DNA of 41,556 bases, taken from a virus (lineage: Duplodnaviria > Heunggongvirae > Uroviricota > Caudoviricetes). The stretch lies in the IMG/VR virus record IMGVR_UViG_2802429245_000005, one strand, 5' to 3'. The position numbers were made by a program, and so were the translations under genes. Positions 3,685 to 36,397 of this stretch are shown here, piece after piece. A model generated the notes under the pieces. That model had not been told where the DNA came from. It saw only the letters and a list, made by a program, of their open reading frames with translations, and did not search any database. Every line of letters starts with the position of its first letter. Positions within the stretch are counted from its first letter, which is position 1.

Positions 3685-6426
3685 TTACACAGCACAAATC
3701 CTGATCGTTGCTGTGATATCAGTTTCAGTGCCATTATTGAGATATAACCTACCGCCTACAATTGACATCCCAATTTTGGTAGAAACTTCTTCATCTGCAG
3801 ATGTCACCACCACGTTTGTTTTATTGTAATTACCAAGCGGAGATTCATCAGTCGAATGCCCTGGCCTCAATATCATTCCTACACCTGCAAAGAAATTAGG
3901 GTTCCCATTATTTATAACATCCACACAATAAGATAATGCGCTTTTACTAAGTGGGATGGATTGACTTGTATGTGCCTTAACCCACATTTCCCATACGTAT
4001 TCACTTTTACGTATCGCCCCCTCACATGAACCAGATGCATGGAATAACTTTCCTGATGATACAGTGTTATTGGTGCCAACAAGAATCATCTGATTTCCAC
4101 CACCAAAGCCAAAGTTATCACCAAGAGATGGTCCACCATTAATCCTTAACATATATGCATCAGTACTGCCTGATGAGGCGTCAGAGTTATCTATATATAC
4201 AGTGCAATCACTTATAAGAACGCCATCAATCTTATCTGGCGCAACAGTATTAGTTTGGACAACGACGAACTCTCTGGTGGTAGATTTTGCCGAACAACCT
4301 TTAATAATTGTTGGTGTTTCAAGAGTATATGTTTGAGTAATAAAAATGAAATTACTAGGACGAAGCTTCCGATTAACAGCATTTGTTGCTTTCCACCATT
4401 TATTGCTTGATTCGGTTGTTTCGCTAAAGCCATCAATATAGTGAGTATCGGTAATAGTAATTCCGCTACCATAATACAAACGAATCGGAAGGTTGCTAAA
4501 TCCTCTAATCTCGCAACCAGATACTATCTCATTAAAACCACGTATAGTTGCGCCATAAAAACAGTCAACTGCCACATTGTCTTTATATTTAGACTCTGCG
4601 GCACCACCATGACTACCAAACCCATAGGAAAATTCAGTCCATCCTTCCGATGGAAATATAATCCCACCAGTATAACCAGTTCCGCCACCACGCATTGTAA
4701 TGTTGGTTACATTATTGTAGAGAGAACTCCAGTTACTCCCTCCAATATCAACACCACGCCTACAACAAGATGCATTGATATTGTCCACAGTGCAGTAACT
4801 GCTATTGGAAACAGAAACAGCATTACCTGTACCACCATCACCATTGAAAACTCTATTGATTCCATACAGAGATGTATCACGAACAGTGCATCTTAAGCAG
4901 CCTAACAAGGTAATCCCAGCATTCGGGAAATTTTCCACACTAGCGAAACTGGCAATACCGTTTACGCAATATTCGAAGACAACCCCATCATAAGCTTTTT
5001 GTCCGCTAGTTGCATTGGTAACTAACCCGTGTATCGTCCCAACATGAAAATCTCCAGAAATATTAAATGTAGCAGGATAGACAGCCCAGGCCTCAGCTTG
5101 CCTAACCAAACGAAATGTATCTCCTGCAGCAGGTTTATTTGGGAATCCAGTGTCAGCATTACTACCAATAGTAAATGTTTTTGTGTCATCATCATATGCT
5201 GTAACCATTTTGGTTATACCAGCATTATCTCCCGTTAATCCAAGAATTTTATAGAGTGCATCACGAGGTGGTGATGTCACTGAGAAATTTGTAGATGTAA
5301 ATGATTGCCCACTAGATGCGCCAGTAACTGTAACTGTAATATTCCCTCCTGAACGGTAGTAATAATATGCATCCTGATCTAATGTCACATTATTTCCACT
5401 AAGTGAAACGACTTCAACAATTTGCCCTTCCTGCCAACTTCCTCGGTTATCTCCACGAACAAGGTGGTTATTACGAATAACAAGCAAATCTCCGACAGAA
5501 ATATCAGACACATCATCAAGAGTCACAGTCTTTTCGCCCAATGATATATCTCTCGTTATGAAATTATGCAATTTAGTACTTGCAATTCCACCAAGCTTTA
5601 TTGCTGAACCTTCATATCCTACAACATTATTTGTGCAGAGCAATTCAACCTTTCCTGATGCCACCCAATCGAAGCAACCATATGGAATGGAAATATCTAT
5701 TTGTGAAAACAGGTACTTTCCTGCTGTCCATTCCAAACGCTTTCCGTTAGATGCGCAGTAAATGATGGCATTTGTTATTGCGTCTGTATCGTCAGTAATG
5801 CCATCCCCTTTTGCACCAAAATCGCGAACATTGACGATATCCCGCATCTTATCCTGGAACGTTCTGTATACTGCTCCAGAACCATACTGAATAAACAAAC
5901 CAAAACCACCAACAACTCCGGCGATTGCAGCATCGACATAATTACGCATTGAGCGATTATTTACAGCATCCTGCTCAAGTGATGGATCTGCAAGGTTAGA
6001 AATTCTGTTTTGTTTTGCATCGTAATATTTTGCAAGCAGAGAGGGCTTCATCAATGCACGTCTGAACCACCCAAAACATTGCTGGATCAGCATCGTCAGA
6101 TAGTCAAAGGCATCCTCATGCACTTCGGGGAAAAATTTTCCCTGATTGCGAAGGTCTGTCTCCTGCACTACATCAAGCACACGATCTATCGTAATTCGCC
6201 ATCCAGCAGCAAGCGGAGACGGAAGAACCACAGAACCGCCACTATAAGTGCCCGCCCCAGTTACCGTATAACCGGTATCCAGAACCAATTCTGTTACGTT
6301 CCCGTTCAGGTCAGACACCTGAACAACCAGGTCTGATTTTCTGAAAATTCGAAAAGTATACGGAAACGATGTCGTAACGCCGTTACCTGTGTATTCGTTG
6401 TGGTCAACTTCGGTTGAGACCGTCAT
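3685..6426 (-). CDS. Tailspike with N-terminal virion-attachment domain and pectate-lyase-like beta-helix receptor-binding/depolymerase domain
   Basis: 913 aa. RBS GGAG 9 nt upstream of ATG (6424-6426). VRDFGAKGDGITDDTDAI motif typical of right-handed beta-helix glycanases. Downstream two-thirds is AT-rich by eye. Confidence 0.85.
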   Translation of the reverse strand: MTVSTEVDHNEYTGNGVTTSFPYTFRIFRKSDLVVQVSDLNGNVTELVLDTGYTVTGAGTYSGGSVVLPSPLAAGWRITIDRVLDVVQETDLRNQGKFFPEVHEDAFDYLTMLIQQCFGWFRRALMKPSLLAKYYDAKQNRISNLADPSLEQDAVNNRSMRNYVDAAIAGVVGGFGLFIQYGSGAVYRTFQDKMRDIVNVRDFGAKGDGITDDTDAITNAIIYCASNGKRLEWTAGKYLFSQIDISIPYGCFDWVASGKVELLCTNNVVGYEGSAIKLGGIASTKLHNFITRDISLGEKTVTLDDVSDISVGDLLVIRNNHLVRGDNRGSWQEGQIVEVVSLSGNNVTLDQDAYYYYRSGGNITVTVTGASSGQSFTSTNFSVTSPPRDALYKILGLTGDNAGITKMVTAYDDDTKTFTIGSNADTGFPNKPAAGDTFRLVRQAEAWAVYPATFNISGDFHVGTIHGLVTNATSGQKAYDGVVFEYCVNGIASFASVENFPNAGITLLGCLRCTVRDTSLYGINRVFNGDGGTGNAVSVSNSSYCTVDNINASCCRRGVDIGGSNWSSLYNNVTNITMRGGGTGYTGGIIFPSEGWTEFSYGFGSHGGAAESKYKDNVAVDCFYGATIRGFNEIVSGCEIRGFSNLPIRLYYGSGITITDTHYIDGFSETTESSNKWWKATNAVNRKLRPSNFIFITQTYTLETPTIIKGCSAKSTTREFVVVQTNTVAPDKIDGVLISDCTVYIDNSDASSGSTDAYMLRINGGPSLGDNFGFGGGNQMILVGTNNTVSSGKLFHASGSCEGAIRKSEYVWEMWVKAHTSQSIPLSKSALSYCVDVINNGNPNFFAGVGMILRPGHSTDESPLGNYNKTNVVVTSADEEVSTKIGMSIVGGRLYLNNGTETDITATIRICAV

Positions 6427-6530
6427 GTTAAATCTCCAGATAGTCGCAGCACCCGTTGCGCCGCATATCTGGTTATTCTATTACCTGAAAAACCACATAT
6501 GGATAGAAAGACTGTAAATACGAATAGATA

Positions 6531-6545
6531 TTACCTTTCAGGTAA
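6531..6545. promoter_or_regulatory. Palindromic operator-like site TTACCTTTCAGGTAA
   Basis: Exact TTACC-N5-GGTAA between the divergent tailspike (start 6426) and gene 6622. Confidence 0.6.
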
Positions 6546-6621
6546 TTTGCAAAACGTGCTGGATAGCAAACAAATTATTTGCTACTGTATAAATATACAG
6601 TTATTGCATGGAGAAGATAAG

Positions 6622-6879
6622 ATGCAGCAGTATCACTATCCACTGGAAGACGGATTTACCGAAAGGATTCACACGCCGGGAGGCGTCAGATCACTGGTGG
6701 AGGGATCGCACTTGATGAAATTACTCCGGGATCTCGATAAGGATGGATTTAATGTCGATGGCCCACTTGCCGAACTGACTGCACTGATTAACTACGTCAC
6801 CAGCTCACAGATGTCTATGCAGGATCTGCAAACACATCTCGACTATTGTGCCGAACAATTACGAAAACAAACCCGGTAA
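6622..6879 (+). CDS. Small protein homologous to the C-terminal domain of the BRO-N antirepressor at 8028-8723
   Basis: ATG at 6622 with GGAGAAG upstream. Aligns with the antirepressor C-terminus (LMKLLRDLDKDGFNVDGPLAELT...DLQTHLDY versus LMNLLNQLQEDGHDVSGAAAELT...DIQTHAEY). Confidence 0.55.
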   Translation: MQQYHYPLEDGFTERIHTPGGVRSLVEGSHLMKLLRDLDKDGFNVDGPLAELTALINYVTSSQMSMQDLQTHLDYCAEQLRKQTR

Positions 6880-6886
6880 ATTTAAA

Positions 6887-6902
6887 GGCCGCAAGAGCGG
6901 CC
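6887..6902. terminator. Hairpin between convergent genes 6622-6879 and 6902-7630 (possible bidirectional terminator)
   Basis: GGCCGC-AAGA-GCGGCC with T-rich flanks on both strands. Confidence 0.4.
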
Positions 6903-7630
6903 TATCGTTTCGCTTTGTGCTCGTCCCAGCACGTTTTGCACCATGCCATTAAGCCGTCCGCATTTTGATTATTAGGGTAAAAGCTGGTTCGTTTTCTGCG
7001 GACATTACAAATTGGGCACCACTTCATATGACGTGTATTCTTTGGGCCATCGAGACACCTTGCACACCACTTAGTCAATCCATCTGGATTTTTTGACGAT
7101 TTCCTGAATTTTTCATATGGAAGGTTTATTCTGCATCGCAAGCACTGCTTGCTACCGCTTGAAACTCTGTTAGCTGATTCTTCTTTTGGCGGCGATACAG
7201 AAGATATTCTTGCTGGCTCTGATACTGCCTGAGGTGCTTTTTTAAATGACTGAGACGATATGTCATCACCAGGGAATCTTCCATGATATGCCGGACGCGT
7301 TGACACTCCAGGTGGAAGCTCAGCTGTAAACGGCTTTGGCTGAATCAGTTGCCTCTCTTTTGCTAACTCCTGCTGTTTATAATATGTCTGGATTACCGCA
7401 CTATCATAAGCAGGAGGTGCGGAAATATTAGGCGCATTACCTCCAGTTTTTTGAAACTGAGTAGAGGTGTGTTCTATCACCTGTGTACGATTAATCGTTA
7501 TCTCCCCATCTTCGGTCTTTATCGTTTTGTTATGATTAACGACCGTACGATCAGAGATCTTAGTCTTGTTCTGGTTGATAACGTAAATAATCACCGTAAC
7601 CACACCAACAACTATCCAGAAAACTTCCAT
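6902..7630 (-). CDS. Membrane-anchored protein with two tandem CxxC...WCxxC zinc-ribbon-like repeats
   Basis: RBS GAGGAAAAG before ATG (7628-7630). N-terminal TM helix, Pro/Ser-rich linker, repeats CLRCR...DGLTKWCARC and CPICN...DGLMAWCKTC. Operator motif at 7651-7665. Confidence 0.6.
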   Translation of the reverse strand: MEVFWIVVGVVTVIIYVINQNKTKISDRTVVNHNKTIKTEDGEITINRTQVIEHTSTQFQKTGGNAPNISAPPAYDSAVIQTYYKQQELAKERQLIQPKPFTAELPPGVSTRPAYHGRFPGDDISSQSFKKAPQAVSEPARISSVSPPKEESANRVSSGSKQCLRCRINLPYEKFRKSSKNPDGLTKWCARCLDGPKNTRHMKWCPICNVRRKRTSFYPNNQNADGLMAWCKTCWDEHKAKR

Positions 7631-7650
7631 TGCTTTTCCTCACAATAACA

Positions 7651-7665
7651 TTACCTTAAAGGTAA
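7651..7665. promoter_or_regulatory. Palindromic operator-like site TTACCTTAAAGGTAA
   Basis: Exact motif 21 nt upstream of the start of minus-strand gene 6902-7630. Confidence 0.6.
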
Positions 7666-7743
7666 TATCTTGCTTTCAGGTGATCAAGCATTAAACGCAA
7701 CCAACCAAATACGGTTGATTTTAATATTTATTCGCGTTTATCA

Positions 7744-7758
7744 TTACCTTTGCGGTAA
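7744..7758. promoter_or_regulatory. Palindromic operator-like site TTACCTTTGCGGTAA
   Basis: Exact motif at the head of the structured leader upstream of the antirepressor gene. Confidence 0.6.
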
Positions 7759-7792
7759 ATTTACATCGCACTCCTCTTGTGCCATAGTAATC

Positions 7793-7816
7793 GGGCACTG
7801 GCAAAATCCAGTGCCG
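7793..7816 (+). other. Perfect 8-bp stem-loop (GGCACTGG / CCAGTGCC) in the antirepressor leader
   Basis: Read directly; lies between the operator at 7744 and the terminator at 7851. Confidence 0.5.
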
Positions 7817-7850
7817 GGATTGGCGTCCCGGATTACTAAAAGGCGCATTC

Positions 7851-7870
7851 ACCGCGCAAGCGGTTTTTTT
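7851..7870 (+). terminator. Intrinsic terminator-like hairpin plus T7 tract in the antirepressor leader
   Basis: ACCGC-GCAA-GCGGT followed by TTTTTTT. Confidence 0.5.
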
Positions 7871-8027
7871 ATGCGTATAGCACGGCCACATTCGTATTAT
7901 GGTGGGCTGTGTGGGGGCACCGAAAGGTGCGCCGGGTCCTTTTAGCCGGTTACGCCAACCCTGCACAGTTCACCACCAACCGATTGGCGTCGGTAGTGGT
8001 GATTAACCAGACTAAAAGGTAACCACT

Positions 8028-8723
8028 ATGACAGCTACAAAAAGCACGTCCATTTTTTCTTTCGAATCCCAAGCCGATATACGGGTAATCGTCATTAATG
8101 GTGAGCCATGGTTTATCGCTTCAGATGTTTGTCGGGCTATAGGCATAGCAAACCATCGAGATGCTGTTCGAAAACTTGATGATGATGAGAAGGGCGTCGC
8201 TTCAACCGACACCCCTGGCGGTGAGCAAGAATCGATCATTATCTCCGAGTCAGGCCTCTACACACTGATCCTCCGCTGCCGCGATGCGGTGACACCAGGC
8301 ACTATCCCCTACCGCTTTCGTAAATGGGTTACAGGTGAGGTTCTTCCTCAGATCCGCCGCACCGGAAGTTACATTAAAAACTCGCTCCCGCAGGAAGAAC
8401 GCATAAAGATGGTTGCCGACCAGGTTGCCAACGCCACGGCGTCAGCAGTAATGCAGGCGATGAAGATAGAGAACAAAACCTACAGCGCCCCGCTGAAGCC
8501 AGGATACCGCAGTCTGATTCACTCGCCGTCTGGTGTTCTCGGCCTGACGGAGAACTCACTGCTGATGAATCTGCTGAACCAGTTACAGGAAGACGGGCAT
8601 GATGTATCGGGCGCGGCGGCGGAGCTGACCACCATGTTCTGCTACATCGTCGGTGTGAGTAAATGCCTGCGTGATATCCAGACGCATGCGGAGTACATCA
8701 ACGACAAGGCTGGGTTCTTCTGA
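8028..8723 (+). CDS. Antirepressor, BRO-N (Ant-type) N-terminal domain plus C-terminal domain
   Basis: N-terminus FSFESQADIRVIVINGEPWFIASDVCRAIGIANHRDAVRKLDDDEKG matches the Bro-N fold signature. RBS AAGG before ATG at 8028. Confidence 0.8.
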   Translation: MTATKSTSIFSFESQADIRVIVINGEPWFIASDVCRAIGIANHRDAVRKLDDDEKGVASTDTPGGEQESIIISESGLYTLILRCRDAVTPGTIPYRFRKWVTGEVLPQIRRTGSYIKNSLPQEERIKMVADQVANATASAVMQAMKIENKTYSAPLKPGYRSLIHSPSGVLGLTENSLLMNLLNQLQEDGHDVSGAAAELTTMFCYIVGVSKCLRDIQTHAEYINDKAGFF

Positions 8724-8789
8724 CGGGCGGCGGCACAGGGATGTGCCTTTAAAATAATCATTGGCGATGTGATGTAGATTCGCGTAATA

Positions 8790-8804
8790 TTACCTTAAAG
8801 GTAA
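8790..8804. promoter_or_regulatory. Palindromic operator-like site TTACCTTAAAGGTAA
   Basis: Exact motif immediately after a -10-like TAATAT (8785-8790) and 27 nt before ATG 8831. Confidence 0.6.
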
Positions 8805-8830
8805 ACCATGTGTTTACATGAGGAGGAGAT

Positions 8831-9040
8831 ATGGGATTTTGGTTCGCTCGTACAAAAACGAGGGATAATGCACCCAGCCCTCAGGCAAAAAATGCAGAAG
8901 TTCCGGCGTCAGCGCAGGTTAACAAGCGTGGTGGAGTATATATCTCATCACAGCAAATTTCTGAGCTTCCTGAGGTTAAGGAGATGCGTCGTCTCGCTGC
9001 TGCAATTGTTAAACAGGATCTTGCCACTGTAAGGAAGTAG
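8831..9040 (+). CDS. Small hydrophilic protein, first gene of an operator-controlled accessory cassette
   Basis: Strong RBS GAGGAGGAG before ATG at 8831. Operator motif at 8790-8804. Stop TAG overlaps the GTG of the next ORF. Confidence 0.55.
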   Translation: MGFWFARTKTRDNAPSPQAKNAEVPASAQVNKRGGVYISSQQISELPEVKEMRRLAAAIVKQDLATVRK

Positions 9041-9906
9041 TGTTGCTAGCTCTTCTAATTATCCCAATCCTGGTTAGCGGTTATATTATGATAACCGCTA
9101 ACCAGTATCATTATTTCCGTTTATACCGACACGAAGGCCAGCTTCTTTATATGAAAGTAGCGGCACTAGGTACATATTGCCTTGTTGCATCAGTAATAAT
9201 TGCAGCCGCTATAAAATATAAATGGCCTGATTTTCACCTAGTTCACGATATGGTGGAAACTTTTAATGTAACATCAAAACCAGAAACAGATAGAATTTAC
9301 ATGTGGCTGCTTCTTCTCTCAGCCACATCCATTTGCTTCTCTTTGTGTTATGTGTCTGTTGTGTGGGTGAAAGATTTTCTTCTTGGTTGTTTTTATAAAC
9401 GTGATATTTACGAGCAAAAAACAGAGGCAATGAAGGCCAGAGTACTGCGAAAAACTTACTCGCAGGGTTCTTTAGACTTACTATTGCTTGATGCTATTGA
9501 ATCGGATCCTAAACGACCAATGCTGATTACTTTATCATCAAACAAAGTGTATGTTGGAATAATAAATGGTTCTGGTGAACCAACGGAAAATCAGGGTCCG
9601 CATCAGCACATATCTTTTGTTCCTTTAATGTCAGGATACAGGAACAAAGAAAACTTATCTGTCACATTCACTAATGCTTATCCAGGAGAAATACAGGTCA
9701 AGCGGACTGCAGCAATAAGAGGAATTAGCAGAAAGAAAGTGCCAGGACTTGAGATCATGGTGTCTATTGACGAAATAAGTTATATATCATGGTTTGATTT
9801 TGAAGTATATAAAGCAACAAATAACAAAGTAGAATCCAGGGGGCACGTTATTCGTGTTACCAAAAATGGAAGAAATATATATCAAAGAAATAGCAAAAAA
9901 GAATAG
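9040..9906 (+). CDS. AT-rich integral membrane protein (three N-terminal TM helices plus soluble C-terminal domain); accessory gene
   Basis: 288 aa ORF. GTG at 9040 is coupled to the upstream stop; alternative ATG at 9088 lies in the loop of an 11-bp inverted repeat. AT-rich by eye. Intrinsic terminator directly after the stop. Confidence 0.6.
   Translation: MLLALLIIPILVSGYIMITANQYHYFRLYRHEGQLLYMKVAALGTYCLVASVIIAAAIKYKWPDFHLVHDMVETFNVTSKPETDRIYMWLLLLSATSICFSLCYVSVVWVKDFLLGCFYKRDIYEQKTEAMKARVLRKTYSQGSLDLLLLDAIESDPKRPMLITLSSNKVYVGIINGSGEPTENQGPHQHISFVPLMSGYRNKENLSVTFTNAYPGEIQVKRTAAIRGISRKKVPGLEIMVSIDEISYISWFDFEVYKATNNKVESRGHVIRVTKNGRNIYQRNSKKE
9074..9101 (+). other. 11-bp perfect inverted repeat around a candidate start codon
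   Basis: TTAGCGGTTAT-ATTATG-ATAACCGCTAA; the ATG at 9088-9090 is in the loop. Confidence 0.5.
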
Positions 9907-26395: not shown

Positions 26396-26485
26396 ATCAA
26401 TGACTCCGTACGCAATTAAATTATTACCAATTTAACCACATATGATTTATTTATCGTAGATAGTTGACATTTAACGCACGAATTA

Positions 26486-26822: not shown

Positions 26823-26899
26823 GTGGCATTAGCTCAGCTGGACAGAGCAACCGCCTTCTAAGCGGTTGGTCGCAGGTTCGAATCCTGCATGCCACGCCA
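26823..26899 (+). tRNA. tRNA-Arg, anticodon UCU (reads AGA), phage-encoded
   Basis: Cloverleaf read directly: acceptor GTGGCAT/ATGCCAC, D-arm GCTC-AGCTGGACA-GAGC, anticodon stem ACCGC/GCGGT with loop CTTCTAA, T-arm GCAGG-TTCGAAT-CCTGC, discriminator G and encoded CCA. Confidence 0.85.
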
Positions 26900-33507: not shown

Positions 33508-34284
33508 TTACTTGATAAATCCTGCCGCCTTTCCCCGCCTGTATTCCTCCATCAGCCACTGCGCCGGTGTTATTCCCCCAAGGGTGGCGGCGTTAGGCAT
33601 GCACCCGAAACTTCGCCCTGGTGGATGGTAAACGTCTCTCCCTGTGTCCGGAGGTGTACTCATGGGCTCTGGCTTTGCCTGTATGCTGATCACCGGATCG
33701 GGTATCTGCTGTCCGGAAGCCACCTTTTTCGCCCAATCATCGAGCAGCCTGCGCGCGTGTTTCTCAACCTCAATCTCGCTAAGCTGGCGCTGATACATTG
33801 CACGGCGGGTATCACATACGACCCAGTACATAACCGGATGCCGCCACGGGAATCTTTCGGGACCACCAGGATATAAACTTTTTTCCTTGCTGTACCGGTG
33901 AAACTCCGCCATCACATCGTCAATGGTGACGCCAAGAACCATCTTGCTGTCTTTACACCACTTGATAAATTGCCCTGGCGACGGCCAGAACGGAGATTCA
34001 CTGGCGCGGGCGTGGCGCATACCAGCGTTAACCTGTTCCATTGTAGTGATCCCATTCTCCAGAAACGCAAGCATCCATTGCTTACGGAATTCATTAAGTT
34101 TGTTCTGCTCCCTTATGGTCGAAACGCTTGCAGGAAATGCAGCCTGTAACTGGACAAATAGTTCATTGAAAATTCTAGCGACCTGCTCCTTTTTGCCATT
34201 GCTGTCACGCCGCTCTTCATGCACAGCAACACCATGCTCACGTAAGCGATCGTACTCATTGAGAAGTTCTGGAGTTGATTTCAT
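33508..34284 (-). CDS. P: Replication protein P-like helicase loader
   Basis: Strong resemblance to lambda P over IFNELFVQLQAAFPAS...RKQWMLAFLENGITTMEQVNAGMRHARASESPFWPSPGQFIKWCKD. RBS AAGGGG before ATG. Confidence 0.8.
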   Translation of the reverse strand: MKSTPELLNEYDRLREHGVAVHEERRDSNGKKEQVARIFNELFVQLQAAFPASVSTIREQNKLNEFRKQWMLAFLENGITTMEQVNAGMRHARASESPFWPSPGQFIKWCKDSKMVLGVTIDDVMAEFHRYSKEKSLYPGGPERFPWRHPVMYWVVCDTRRAMYQRQLSEIEVEKHARRLLDDWAKKVASGQQIPDPVISIQAKPEPMSTPPDTGRDVYHPPGRSFGCMPNAATLGGITPAQWLMEEYRRGKAAGFIK

Positions 34285-35086
34285 CCCACACCCCTTCTAT
34301 CCAGTCAGTGTTATTCCAGTCAAGCTCATCGCTTTTCCCGACGTTTTTTGATTTTCCCCTGATATGATTTACGTGCCTGGCGAATTTTTGTTCCCACTGA
34401 ACCTGCGTGAACACTTTGCCCTCAGCCATCCAGTAATCCCGGAATGCAGCAAGTTCAGCAGGTGTAAATTCCGGTTCCGGCAGGGCCGTTCCCCACAGCG
34501 CAGCACGCCGTCGAAAATCCGGCGACGGATGCCAGCCATCGGTCATCGGAAATTTCCCAATAGGTTCACTCAGGCCATCCAGAAATGCAGGTTCTGCCAC
34601 CTGCAACGGCGTACCGTTCGCTTCACTGGTCGGATCACTCTCGCGCGCGTGTGCTATGTGTGGGGTTTTATATATATCTTCCTCTTCCTCTTCCTCTGGT
34701 AACTCTTTTTGTAACGCTGTTGGCGTTACTTTTTGCGTTACTCGTTTTCGATGCTCTGCCACTCTTCTATTCGTAAGTGCACGTTTTTTCGATGATTCTC
34801 CATTGTGTCGCTCAAAGTTTGGAAGAATTAGTTTGCCGTCATGATAAGCAAGCCATCCGACGCTAATGAGGGCGTCAGCAAATCCTGTAATAAAAGCGAG
34901 TCTATCAAGTACTCCTTTTGTAACGCTGCCAGCGTTACCGTCTATTGTTTGCTGGTCAGCCCATGCCCATATACGAACCAGCTTTCCAAGAACAGCATCT
35001 GGATCAATACCCAGAATTTCTGCTATCTGAAAAATTTCAGGTTTATCAGGAGTGATAACTTCAACCTTAATCCAGCTGCTTGCCAT
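34256..35086 (-). CDS. Replication initiation/organiser protein with DnaT-like C-terminal domain (O-equivalent)
   Basis: C-terminus GKFPMTDGWHPSPDFRRRAALWGTALPEPEFTPAELAAFRDYWMAEGKVFTQVQWEQKFARH matches the DnaT C-terminal domain. GAGGGG before ATG at 35084-35086. Confidence 0.7.
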   Translation of the reverse strand: MASSWIKVEVITPDKPEIFQIAEILGIDPDAVLGKLVRIWAWADQQTIDGNAGSVTKGVLDRLAFITGFADALISVGWLAYHDGKLILPNFERHNGESSKKRALTNRRVAEHRKRVTQKVTPTALQKELPEEEEEEDIYKTPHIAHARESDPTSEANGTPLQVAEPAFLDGLSEPIGKFPMTDGWHPSPDFRRRAALWGTALPEPEFTPAELAAFRDYWMAEGKVFTQVQWEQKFARHVNHIRGKSKNVGKSDELDWNNTDWIEGVWDEINSRTSQ

Positions 35087-35279
35087 AGGTTTCCCCTCTT
35101 GCACTCTTTAGTGCACAAGCAAATTCATTACGATGGCGGTTGGCGCTATTCATTGCACATTCAACACATGTTCCGTTCAGAACATACCTTTCAGAGAGAT
35201 GGCCGTGACGGCACCGCTTTCCTGTGAAATAGCGATTTAACCCGGCTTTTGCGGCCTCCATTCTGGTTACTATCTTCAA
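35067..35279 (-). CDS. Small Cys/His-rich zinc-binding-like protein
   Basis: 70 aa with CRHGH...CVEC. Start is either TTG 35279 (AAGGGG upstream) or ATG 35261. Confidence 0.45.
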   Translation of the reverse strand: MKIVTRMEAAKAGLNRYFTGKRCRHGHLSERYVLNGTCVECAMNSANRHRNEFACALKSARGETYGKQLD

Positions 35280-35812: not shown

Positions 35813-36397
35813 ATGAAAAGTATCCAGGACGTCCGCAGGCAAAATCTCAACGACTTGATCGACCGTGAATTCAATGGTGTTCAGACGCGGATGGCAGAAA
35901 AACTTGGAACTCAGGCAAATCTGGTAAACCGCTGGGCTCTTGGCAAGAAGGTTATCGGCGACCAGGTTGCGCGAAAAATTGAAGCTGCCGCCAATAAACC
36001 CCGTAACTGGCTTGATATCGATCGCTCGCTTTCTCAGGAAGGTTTTCAGCCTGTCGGCCCAAGCGACATTGGTCAGCTGGCGGCTCACAACCTGGAACGC
36101 TGGATGAGCGAAAGCCGCGACCTTTCAACACAGGGAAAACTTCACCGCGCATCCGGCGTCGCCCAGGTAACAATCAGCCGCCTGTTAAACAATGAGGTCA
36201 GCGTTTCCATTTCCACCCTGGAGAATGTTGCATCCGCATTCGGGCGTCACGGCTATGAATTACTGATTCACCCGCACGACCCTGCGACCATCAACTATGA
36301 CCGCTCGCGCTACGCATTGTTACCCGAAACCGAGAAAGCAAAGATCGAAAGTTACATTGAATTTGTCATCAACCAGAACGAAAAAAATAAACAATAA
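35813..36397 (+). CDS. Repressor-like protein with two XRE-type HTH domains (candidate lysogeny repressor)
   Basis: 194 aa with two HTH-like segments and no S24 peptidase domain. Monocistronic: strong terminator at 36418-36444. Operator motifs cluster between it and the cro-like gene. Confidence 0.7.
   Translation: MKSIQDVRRQNLNDLIDREFNGVQTRMAEKLGTQANLVNRWALGKKVIGDQVARKIEAAANKPRNWLDIDRSLSQEGFQPVGPSDIGQLAAHNLERWMSESRDLSTQGKLHRASGVAQVTISRLLNNEVSVSISTLENVASAFGRHGYELLIHPHDPATINYDRSRYALLPETEKAKIESYIEFVINQNEKNKQ

Follow-up and report, generated by a model that had tools for sequence, protein, structure and literature searches.

Phage proteins at the inner membrane and the protein of this study

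P22 SieA, T4 Imm and Sp, HK97 gp15 and lactococcal Sie2009 are small phage inner-membrane proteins encoded by accessory genes, and the genes for Sie2009 and lambda rexAB adjoin the repressor gene. To our knowledge, none of SieA, Imm/Sp, gp15 and Sie2009 carries zinc fingers. The p16.7 protein of phage phi29 consists of an N-terminal transmembrane (TM) anchor and a C-terminal DNA-binding domain, the latter with the fold of a homeodomain-like dimer. It is an early phage protein that recruits DNA to the membrane (PMC4974454). SNIPE, a GIY-YIG nuclease bound to the membrane, cuts phage DNA as it is injected, at the genome entry site, and is composed of a periplasmic N-terminus, a single-pass TM helix and cytoplasmic basic DNA-binding and nuclease domains (PMC13190303). 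The present study concerns a 242-amino-acid (aa) protein encoded in a 41,556-nucleotide (nt) stretch of virus DNA (IMG/VR record IMGVR_UViG_2802429245_000005), which is referred to as the window; coordinates of open reading frames (ORFs) are window positions. The window represents a temperate podovirus or prophage of E. coli that belongs to the epsilon15/phiV10-like (Uetakevirus-type) group. The ORF of the protein lies at 6902-7630 on the minus strand and starts with ATG. Its product consists of four parts, i.e. an N-terminal TM helix, a juxtamembrane segment, a variable linker and two Cys4 fingers.

The protein resembles SNIPE in its TM helix and predicted N-out topology, but it is phage-encoded, has no catalytic domain and matched neither DUF4041 nor GIY-YIG in Pfam, nor any PADLOC entry. 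With the superinfection-exclusion proteins it has in common that a homolog stands beside the repressor gene in two lambdoid prophages. PHROG and Pfam scans of the window protein revealed no sequence similarity to these proteins, and unlike lysogen-expressed exclusion genes the window gene is predicted to be repressor-controlled. It also differs from p16.7, which is a conserved replication component of a protein-primed Gram-positive phage, whereas the window gene is a sporadic moron. No characterised protein joins an N-out anchor, a long disordered tether and HNH-type fingers without a nuclease.

The protein is here read, with a probability of roughly 40%, as a non-catalytic factor that is tethered to the membrane, binds DNA or a partner and keeps incoming foreign DNA out. 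The tether of 59-102 residues would hold the basic Cys4 finger pair at the cytoplasmic face of the inner membrane, and there the fingers would bind DNA or a DNA-entry or ejection protein. Such binding would interfere with the entry or establishment of competing DNA, which would amount to superinfection exclusion or to defence without a nuclease. Exclusion could be of use in lysogens, where the gene belongs to a cI operon, and during early lytic growth or establishment, where it is controlled by an operator. This reading was favoured because the sporadic behaviour of the gene as an accessory element (moron) fits it and SNIPE provides a precedent, and it was strengthened by two independent contexts next to cI. 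A more far-reaching version, according to which the family is a new nuclease-free class of phage exclusion or defence factors with tethered HNH-type fingers at the DNA-entry mouth, is doubtful. In that version the fingers would capture incoming DNA, or its ejection or tape-measure proteins, and block establishment. Some phage lineages would have recruited the gene into the cI operon and others into the repressor regulon.

Architecture of the protein and relatives of its finger pair

The 242-aa ORF is a real, conserved gene. The ratio of nonsynonymous to synonymous substitution rates (dN/dS) was 0.30-0.37 in comparisons with close homologs. Towards distant homologs synonymous sites were saturated, with a proportion of synonymous differences (pS) of 0.76-0.88, and the nonsynonymous proportion (pN) was 0.19-0.31. 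The low dN/dS together with a low pN at saturated pS indicates a coding gene under purifying selection. The structure of the protein was predicted by AlphaFold2 (AF2) with the family alignment, and the model, judged by its per-residue confidence score (pLDDT), was confident only over residues 3-20 and 158-242 and of low confidence between them. The coding sequence and its parts are as follows.

6902-7630, minus strand: coding sequence, 242 aa, identical in protein sequence to WP_105266601.1, member of PHROG 6762, under purifying selection
7571-7624, minus strand: TM helix, residues 3-20, modelled as a helix with pLDDT ~90, without a positive n-region
7457-7570, minus strand: conserved basic juxtamembrane segment, residues 21-58, column identity 0.69, with invariant N21, T39 and G42
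7160-7456, minus strand: Ser/Pro/Ala-rich tether, residues 59-157, predicted disordered, pLDDT <50 over most of its length
7034-7159, minus strand: putative zinc finger 1, residues 158-199, with invariant C163, C166, C189 and C192, pLDDT >90
6905-7033, minus strand: putative zinc finger 2, residues 200-242, with C205, C208, C231 and C234 and a nearly invariant basic run RRKRTSFY

The TM helix, VFWIVVGVVTVIIYVI, showed a column identity of 0.79, and the same value was obtained for the C-terminal domain (residues 158-242), which was modelled with a pLDDT >90. The juxtamembrane motif NQNKTKxSDRTV...TIKTEDGEIxIxRTQV was kept even in the Aeromonas homolog, which has an overall identity of 29.5% to the window protein. 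Strands modelled at residues 27-39 and 42-54 of this segment with low confidence (pLDDT ~50) suggest a possible beta-hairpin. The linker (residues 59-160; 14% Ser, 13% Pro, 11% Ala) was 59-102 aa long across the family, with a column identity of 0.35.

All 30 family members carried just 'ME' or 'MQ' ahead of the TM helix and 3-5 Lys/Arg in the next 15 residues, and in the homolog of Yersinia phage YeP5 a (TK)n run was expanded just after the helix. The protein is predicted to be a single-pass anchor of the inner membrane with N-out/C-in topology, which by the positive-inside rule would place the Cys4 fingers in the reducing cytoplasm. An N-terminal hydrophobic helix together with eight Cys could also represent a signal-anchor with a disulfide-rich ectodomain, in which case a periplasmic, disulfide-bonded Cys domain would act on the envelope like a spanin or block a receptor or channel. 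Such a reversed topology is very improbable, as positive residues are missing before the helix and present after it in all 30 members, and the (TK)n expansion of YeP5 likewise follows the helix. Moreover, the relatives of the domain are cytoplasmic nucleases and helicases, and a separate Rz-like spanin is encoded elsewhere in the phage. A cleavable signal peptide was rejected, since the n-region is negative or absent and the sequence contains no AxA site. A zinc-binding anti-sigma factor was also rejected on reading the sequence, which has the wrong domain order and no HxxxCxxC motif.

Eight Cys were invariant or nearly so, each repeat having the form CxxC-x22-CxxC. Profiles of the two repeats (residues 159-199 and 201-241) were aligned by hhalign with a probability of 97% (E 8e-11, 33% identity over 39 columns), indicating that the internal repeat is real. 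In each finger, AF2 predicted short strands and then a helix starting at the second CxxC, and the fingers thus modelled look treble-clef rather than classical zinc ribbons. The C-terminal 85 aa have a net charge of +14 in the window protein and of +12 to +16 in 28 of the 30 members. The initial annotation, made from the sequence alone, had described an ORF with a TM helix, a Pro/Ser-rich linker and two repeats, all of which were borne out by these results. Of the term 'zinc-ribbon-like' used there, the two Cys4 repeats stood, whereas the predicted secondary structure was treble-clef-like. The protein had also been regarded as not assignable to a known family. It does, however, match PHROG 6762 over its full length (residues 1-242 against profile positions 1-242 of 242, E 3.3e-148, 493 bits), and its fingers are Stc1-like, so that the statement was correct only in part. 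PHROG 6762 has no annotated function, and membership therefore says nothing on mechanism.

In a Pfam scan of the window protein at E<=1, the only match was to Stc1 (PF12898; 21.2 bits, E 4.3e-4), below the gathering threshold of 24.8 bits. The same family was matched at E<0.01 by 24 of the 30 members, always sub-threshold (best E 1.2e-4). The top PDB match in Foldseek was 2luy, the Stc1 tandem zinc finger (E 4e-3, probability 0.87), with a low TM-score due to the use of the full-length model as query. Matches in BFVD were HNH/EndoVII endonucleases and 'Zn-finger' proteins (E down to 9e-8), and in PHROG the fingers matched N-terminal parts of endonuclease VII, HNH endonuclease, primase and "Lar-like" profiles. 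When 1.8 billion representatives were searched with a profile, 1729 proteins with shared fingers were retrieved (E<=0.001). Stand-alone forms of 85-94 aa, multi-repeat proteins passing the Stc1 threshold, and fusions with SF1/SF2 helicases and HEAT repeats were observed among the remote relatives. Whether the query was the C-terminal domain by itself or a profile of 15 sequences, PDB sequence searches gave chance RING-finger matches only (E>=0.18), and an NCBIfam scan of the protein gave no matches.

Stc1 is a soluble eukaryotic adaptor of an RNAi/chromatin pathway. Its two consecutive Cys4 fingers are also present in the window protein, where, unlike in Stc1, the domain is phage-encoded and membrane-tethered. 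The Cys4 finger scaffold is likewise common to the window protein and HNH/EndoVII (beta-beta-alpha-Me) nucleases, including phage and giant-virus HNH proteins, Hpy99I and PacI. Unlike these nucleases, the window protein has neither a catalytic His (general base) nor an Asn/His metal ligand in the finger, and its CxxC pairs are 22 aa apart, compared with 31 aa in T4 EndoVII. No His was invariant or nearly so inside either CxxC-x22-CxxC, the nearly invariant H201 being located in the spacer between the fingers, and a cryptic HNH active site was therefore rejected. The lack of a conserved His within the fingers and the restriction of Pfam matches to sub-threshold Stc1 indicate a finger pair of the nuclease type to which no nuclease is attached. 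This non-catalytic, Stc1-like tandem zinc finger is proposed to bind zinc and DNA. An Ogr/Delta-type zinc-finger activator, which has a similar CxxC-x22 spacing, was rejected on the basis of the same Pfam scan. A Lar-like restriction alleviation protein was rejected as well, because the match to PHROG 5558 (E 2.9e-9) covered only the finger, at profile positions 7-47 of 130.

The Stc1 tandem zinc finger is a protein-binding, LIM-like domain. As it is the best PDB fold match, LIM/Stc1-like fingers might sequester a host cytoplasmic protein at the membrane in a host-takeover or anti-defence role, candidate targets being a nuclease, a restriction complex, a division protein or a transcription factor. 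The partial match to the Lar-like profile and the predicted co-regulation with antirepressor genes described below are in line with this role, but the former is limited to the shared finger and Pfam yielded nothing beyond sub-threshold Stc1. In addition, the apparent co-transcription of homologs with cI implies a product that is harmless in lysogens, unlike a toxic takeover protein, and the strongly basic surface and the associations with nucleases and helicases favour nucleic acid as ligand. A takeover role is thus considered unlikely.

Putative operator and promoter, and insertion of the gene

The elements surrounding the gene, and the repressor gene of the window, are the following.

6886-6903, minus strand: GC-rich hairpin AGGCCGCTCTTGCGGCCT with a T-rich tail, from a terminator scan, overlapping the stop codon and forming the left end of the cassette
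7636-7641, minus strand: Shine-Dalgarno sequence GAGGAA, 5 nt 5' of the ATG, read directly from the sequence
7650-7666, no strand assigned: perfect 17-bp palindromic operator ATTACCTTAAAGGTAAT with zero mismatch, the presumed site of the helix-turn-helix (HTH) repressor
7659-7687, minus strand: predicted sigma-70 promoter with -35 TTGATC (7687-7682), a 17-nt spacer and -10 TACCTT (7664-7659)
7715-7759, plus strand: Pant, TTGATT-18-TATCAT, with hexamers at 7715-7744 and an overlapping operator at 7743-7759
35813-36397, plus strand: HTH gene of the presumed prophage repressor, product with a C-terminal HTH_3 and no Peptidase_S24 domain

The 17-bp palindrome ATTACC-N5-GGTAAT was found at 16 sites in the window, compared with 1.14 expected; a count of 16 was not attained in any of 100 shuffles. 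According to the annotation of Escherichia phage TL-2011b, the sites flank the HTH repressor gene, precede the replication genes, terS and three accessory genes, one of which is the 242-aa gene, and are also present at Pant. The positions of the palindrome include 6530, 7650, 7743, 8789, 26485, 27102, 29821, 29839, 33393, 33455, 35357, 35742, 36454 and 36516; early promoters are among their locations, and immediately 5' of terS the operators form a tandem pair. The -10 hexamer TACCTT of the 242-aa gene is the left half-site of the operator at 7650-7666. A layout of TTGNNN, 16 or 17 nt and TACCTT within the operator was present in 25 of 39 distinct upstream regions and spanned five diverged cassette lineages (E. 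coli, L068-L073, L075, Serratia and Pectobacterium). Membership of the 242-aa gene in the predicted regulon of the resident repressor is therefore well supported at the sequence level. We infer that the repressor occludes the promoter of the gene, which would then fire together with ant on infection or induction and would be silent in the established lysogen. Since the repressor has no S24 domain, induction is probably antirepressor-dependent and not mediated by RecA-dependent cleavage. In the related Uetakevirus ZX5 (vB_EcoP_ZX5), the roles of repressor and antirepressor have been verified, with no operators mapped (PMC9782041), and no published mapping of an ATTACC-N5-GGTAAT operator was found in the literature on epsilon15 operators.

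Pant is divergent from the 242-aa gene and drives isrK-like and C4-like leader RNAs and the Bro-N antirepressor gene ant (8028-8723, plus strand). Its operator and that of the 242-aa gene are 93 bp apart, centre to centre. The initial annotation had placed the gene under operator control and divergent from the ant leader. The Pant hexamers confirmed the orientation, and the -10 inside an enriched operator, in a layout kept in diverged cassettes, argues for the control. An operator had been reported 21 nt upstream; it does lie just upstream, but its distance from the ATG is 19 nt.

Two RNA elements were detected above the Rfam gathering thresholds in the ant leader (7760-8027, plus strand), namely isrK at 7795-7870 (77.9 bits) and C4 antisense RNA at 7895-7980 (77.7 bits). 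This points to the co-occurrence, in one Uetakevirus-type phage, of RNA control of the P1/P7 immI type and an element like IsrK of Gifsy-1. The leader is common to Stx-converting phages, with ~60-90% identity. Between the divergent promoters, an inverted repeat CAACC-N6-GGTTG with a T-rich run (7702-7717) overlaps the -35 of Pant. Another palindrome, GTGACATGTCAC (GTGACGTGTCAC in L070), was observed in the L068-L073 cassettes, the proteins of which are ~62% identical to that of the window. It is located ~70-85 nt 5' of the ATG of the homolog, shortly before the -35. The E. coli cassette lacks this palindrome, to which a second regulator may bind.

The region 6400-8100 was 97.5% identical to TL-2011b, whereas phiV10, ZX5 and the O157 typing phages matched only both of its flanks. 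Compared with phiV10, 874 bp (6880-7753) are found in place of 41 bp, and this segment, comprising the terminator, the ORF, the operator and a rebuilt Pant, is a moron-like accessory insertion. The insertion site belongs to a variable region extending from the tailspike gene (3685-6426, minus strand) to the internal-virion-protein genes, in which antirepressor genes are also located. At the left end of the cassette, the hairpin is likely a bidirectional terminator between the 242-aa gene and a convergent ORF of 85 aa (6622-6879, plus strand). The cassette represents a clean case of a moron promoter built around the operator half-site of the resident repressor and a testable model for the wiring of accessory genes into a prophage regulatory circuit.

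In the TL-2011b record (34153-35241; L001 5502-6590), the gene is covered only by a misc_feature, 'similar to hypothetical protein', which also spans the isrK/C4 leader. This entry and a tblastn match beginning at residue 19 raised the possibility of a pseudogene, which was rejected after DNA alignment revealed an intact start region. The TL-2011b copy is for this reason probably functional and simply unannotated.

Distribution, gene contexts and the proposed exclusion role

Homologs of the 242-aa protein (n=33, 38-95% identity) were all from Enterobacterales and all unnamed or "hypothetical". The cassette was carried by 133 of 5426 complete E. coli genomes (~2.5%), always annotated as "hypothetical protein". 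These carriers included the enterotoxigenic E. coli (ETEC) strain H10407 (WP_000451762.1) and avian pathogenic E. coli (APEC) strains. Further prophage carriers were found in Serratia, Citrobacter or Enterobacter, Salmonella, Pectobacterium, Yersinia, Aeromonas and Marinobacterium. In epsilon15-type prophages of Serratia, of Citrobacter-like and of Yersinia-like hosts, the gene was located elsewhere in the same variable region, typically adjoining internal-virion-protein genes and near Bro-N/KilA-N antirepressors or HicAB. The equivalent slot of a Pectobacterium prophage contained an unrelated 244-aa gene, which was rejected as a paralog. Neighbours in the Pectobacterium prophage and in TL-2011b included the toxin-antitoxin genes HicAB and YafO, and the Serratia loci also contained extra antirepressors. 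In one siphovirus the homolog was located among tail genes, with a hairpin and T-run just before it.

A profile scan of genome contigs with the Aeromonas-type subfamily yielded two loci, of which one was informative. In two lambdoid prophages, Aeromonas phage phiARM81mr and one of Marinobacterium, a CI-type repressor gene (HTH_3 and Peptidase_S24) is followed after 18 nt, on the same strand, by the start of the homolog, which is so placed that it would be co-transcribed with cI. The two homologs are 33% identical to each other. Lambda rexAB occupies the same position relative to cI. The location directly after cI implies that lysogens tolerate the product and presumably benefit from it. In Marinobacterium sp. 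MBR-109 (L094 5341-7310), cI and the homolog are followed by a gene for an SNase and Excalibur nuclease and then by exonuclease and RecT genes. The nuclease has a hydrophobic N-terminus and is likely secreted, and cI, homolog and nuclease may form a small lysogen-expressed accessory operon.

The contexts also bear on a possible function of the protein as a membrane organiser of the phage's own replicating or newly injected genome. The predicted early, repressor-controlled expression, the N-terminal TM helix joined to a basic nuclease-type zinc module and the precedent of p16.7 (PMC4974454) would be consistent with such a function. However, near-identical phages, among them phiV10 and ZX5, lack the gene, which occupies a slot in which genes are swapped in and out, and the protein has no sequence or fold relation to p16.7. 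A replication aid would moreover be pointless where the gene appears to be co-transcribed with cI, as in the two lambdoid prophages, and an organiser is regarded as distinctly improbable.

Of the two roles initially proposed for a membrane-tethered binding factor, exclusion is compatible with all findings, whereas signalling was unsupported. Several points weigh against exclusion. With an operator over the -10, the gene is predicted to be OFF in lysogens, and classical exclusion by a prophage would be inoperative here. Exclusion of the T4 Imm type, during early lytic growth or establishment, is the option remaining in the window. The Stc1 domain of fission yeast makes contacts with protein and not with DNA, so that the ligand of the fingers may be a protein. 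Only two cI-adjacent cases were found, and the context evidence is derived mainly from one phage lineage. A generic promoter scan did not call the TTGATC-17-TACCTT promoter, and a scan of PADLOC-DB v2 returned 0 families at E<=0.1. In the literature, no paper was found naming the TL-2011b copy, WP_000451762 or a phage Stc1 zinc ribbon. If the protein is an exclusion or defence factor, the recognition fingers of HNH nucleases would be reusable without catalysis as a membrane-tethered barrier to genome entry. This would complement the logic of SNIPE and add a phage host-range determinant relevant to phage therapy.

Three further loci of the window were noted. The 85-aa ORF at 6622-6879, which is epsilon15 gp19/phiV10 gp24-like, corresponds to a stand-alone C-terminal domain of the neighbouring Bro-N antirepressor, and PHROG 450 matched both. 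This 85-aa ORF, which has a perfect operator of its own at 6530-6546, could modulate Ant, e.g. as a dominant-negative form or decoy. In the same variable region, a gene at 9040-9906 (plus strand) is another operator-controlled accessory gene by position, its operator being located at 8789-8805. It encodes a 288-aa protein with apparent N-terminal hydrophobic segments, which belongs to PHROG 3630 (unknown function) and had no Pfam or PADLOC match. A tRNA-Arg gene (anticodon TCT) is located at 26823-26899 on the plus strand, with operator-like sites on its flanks at 26485 and 27102.

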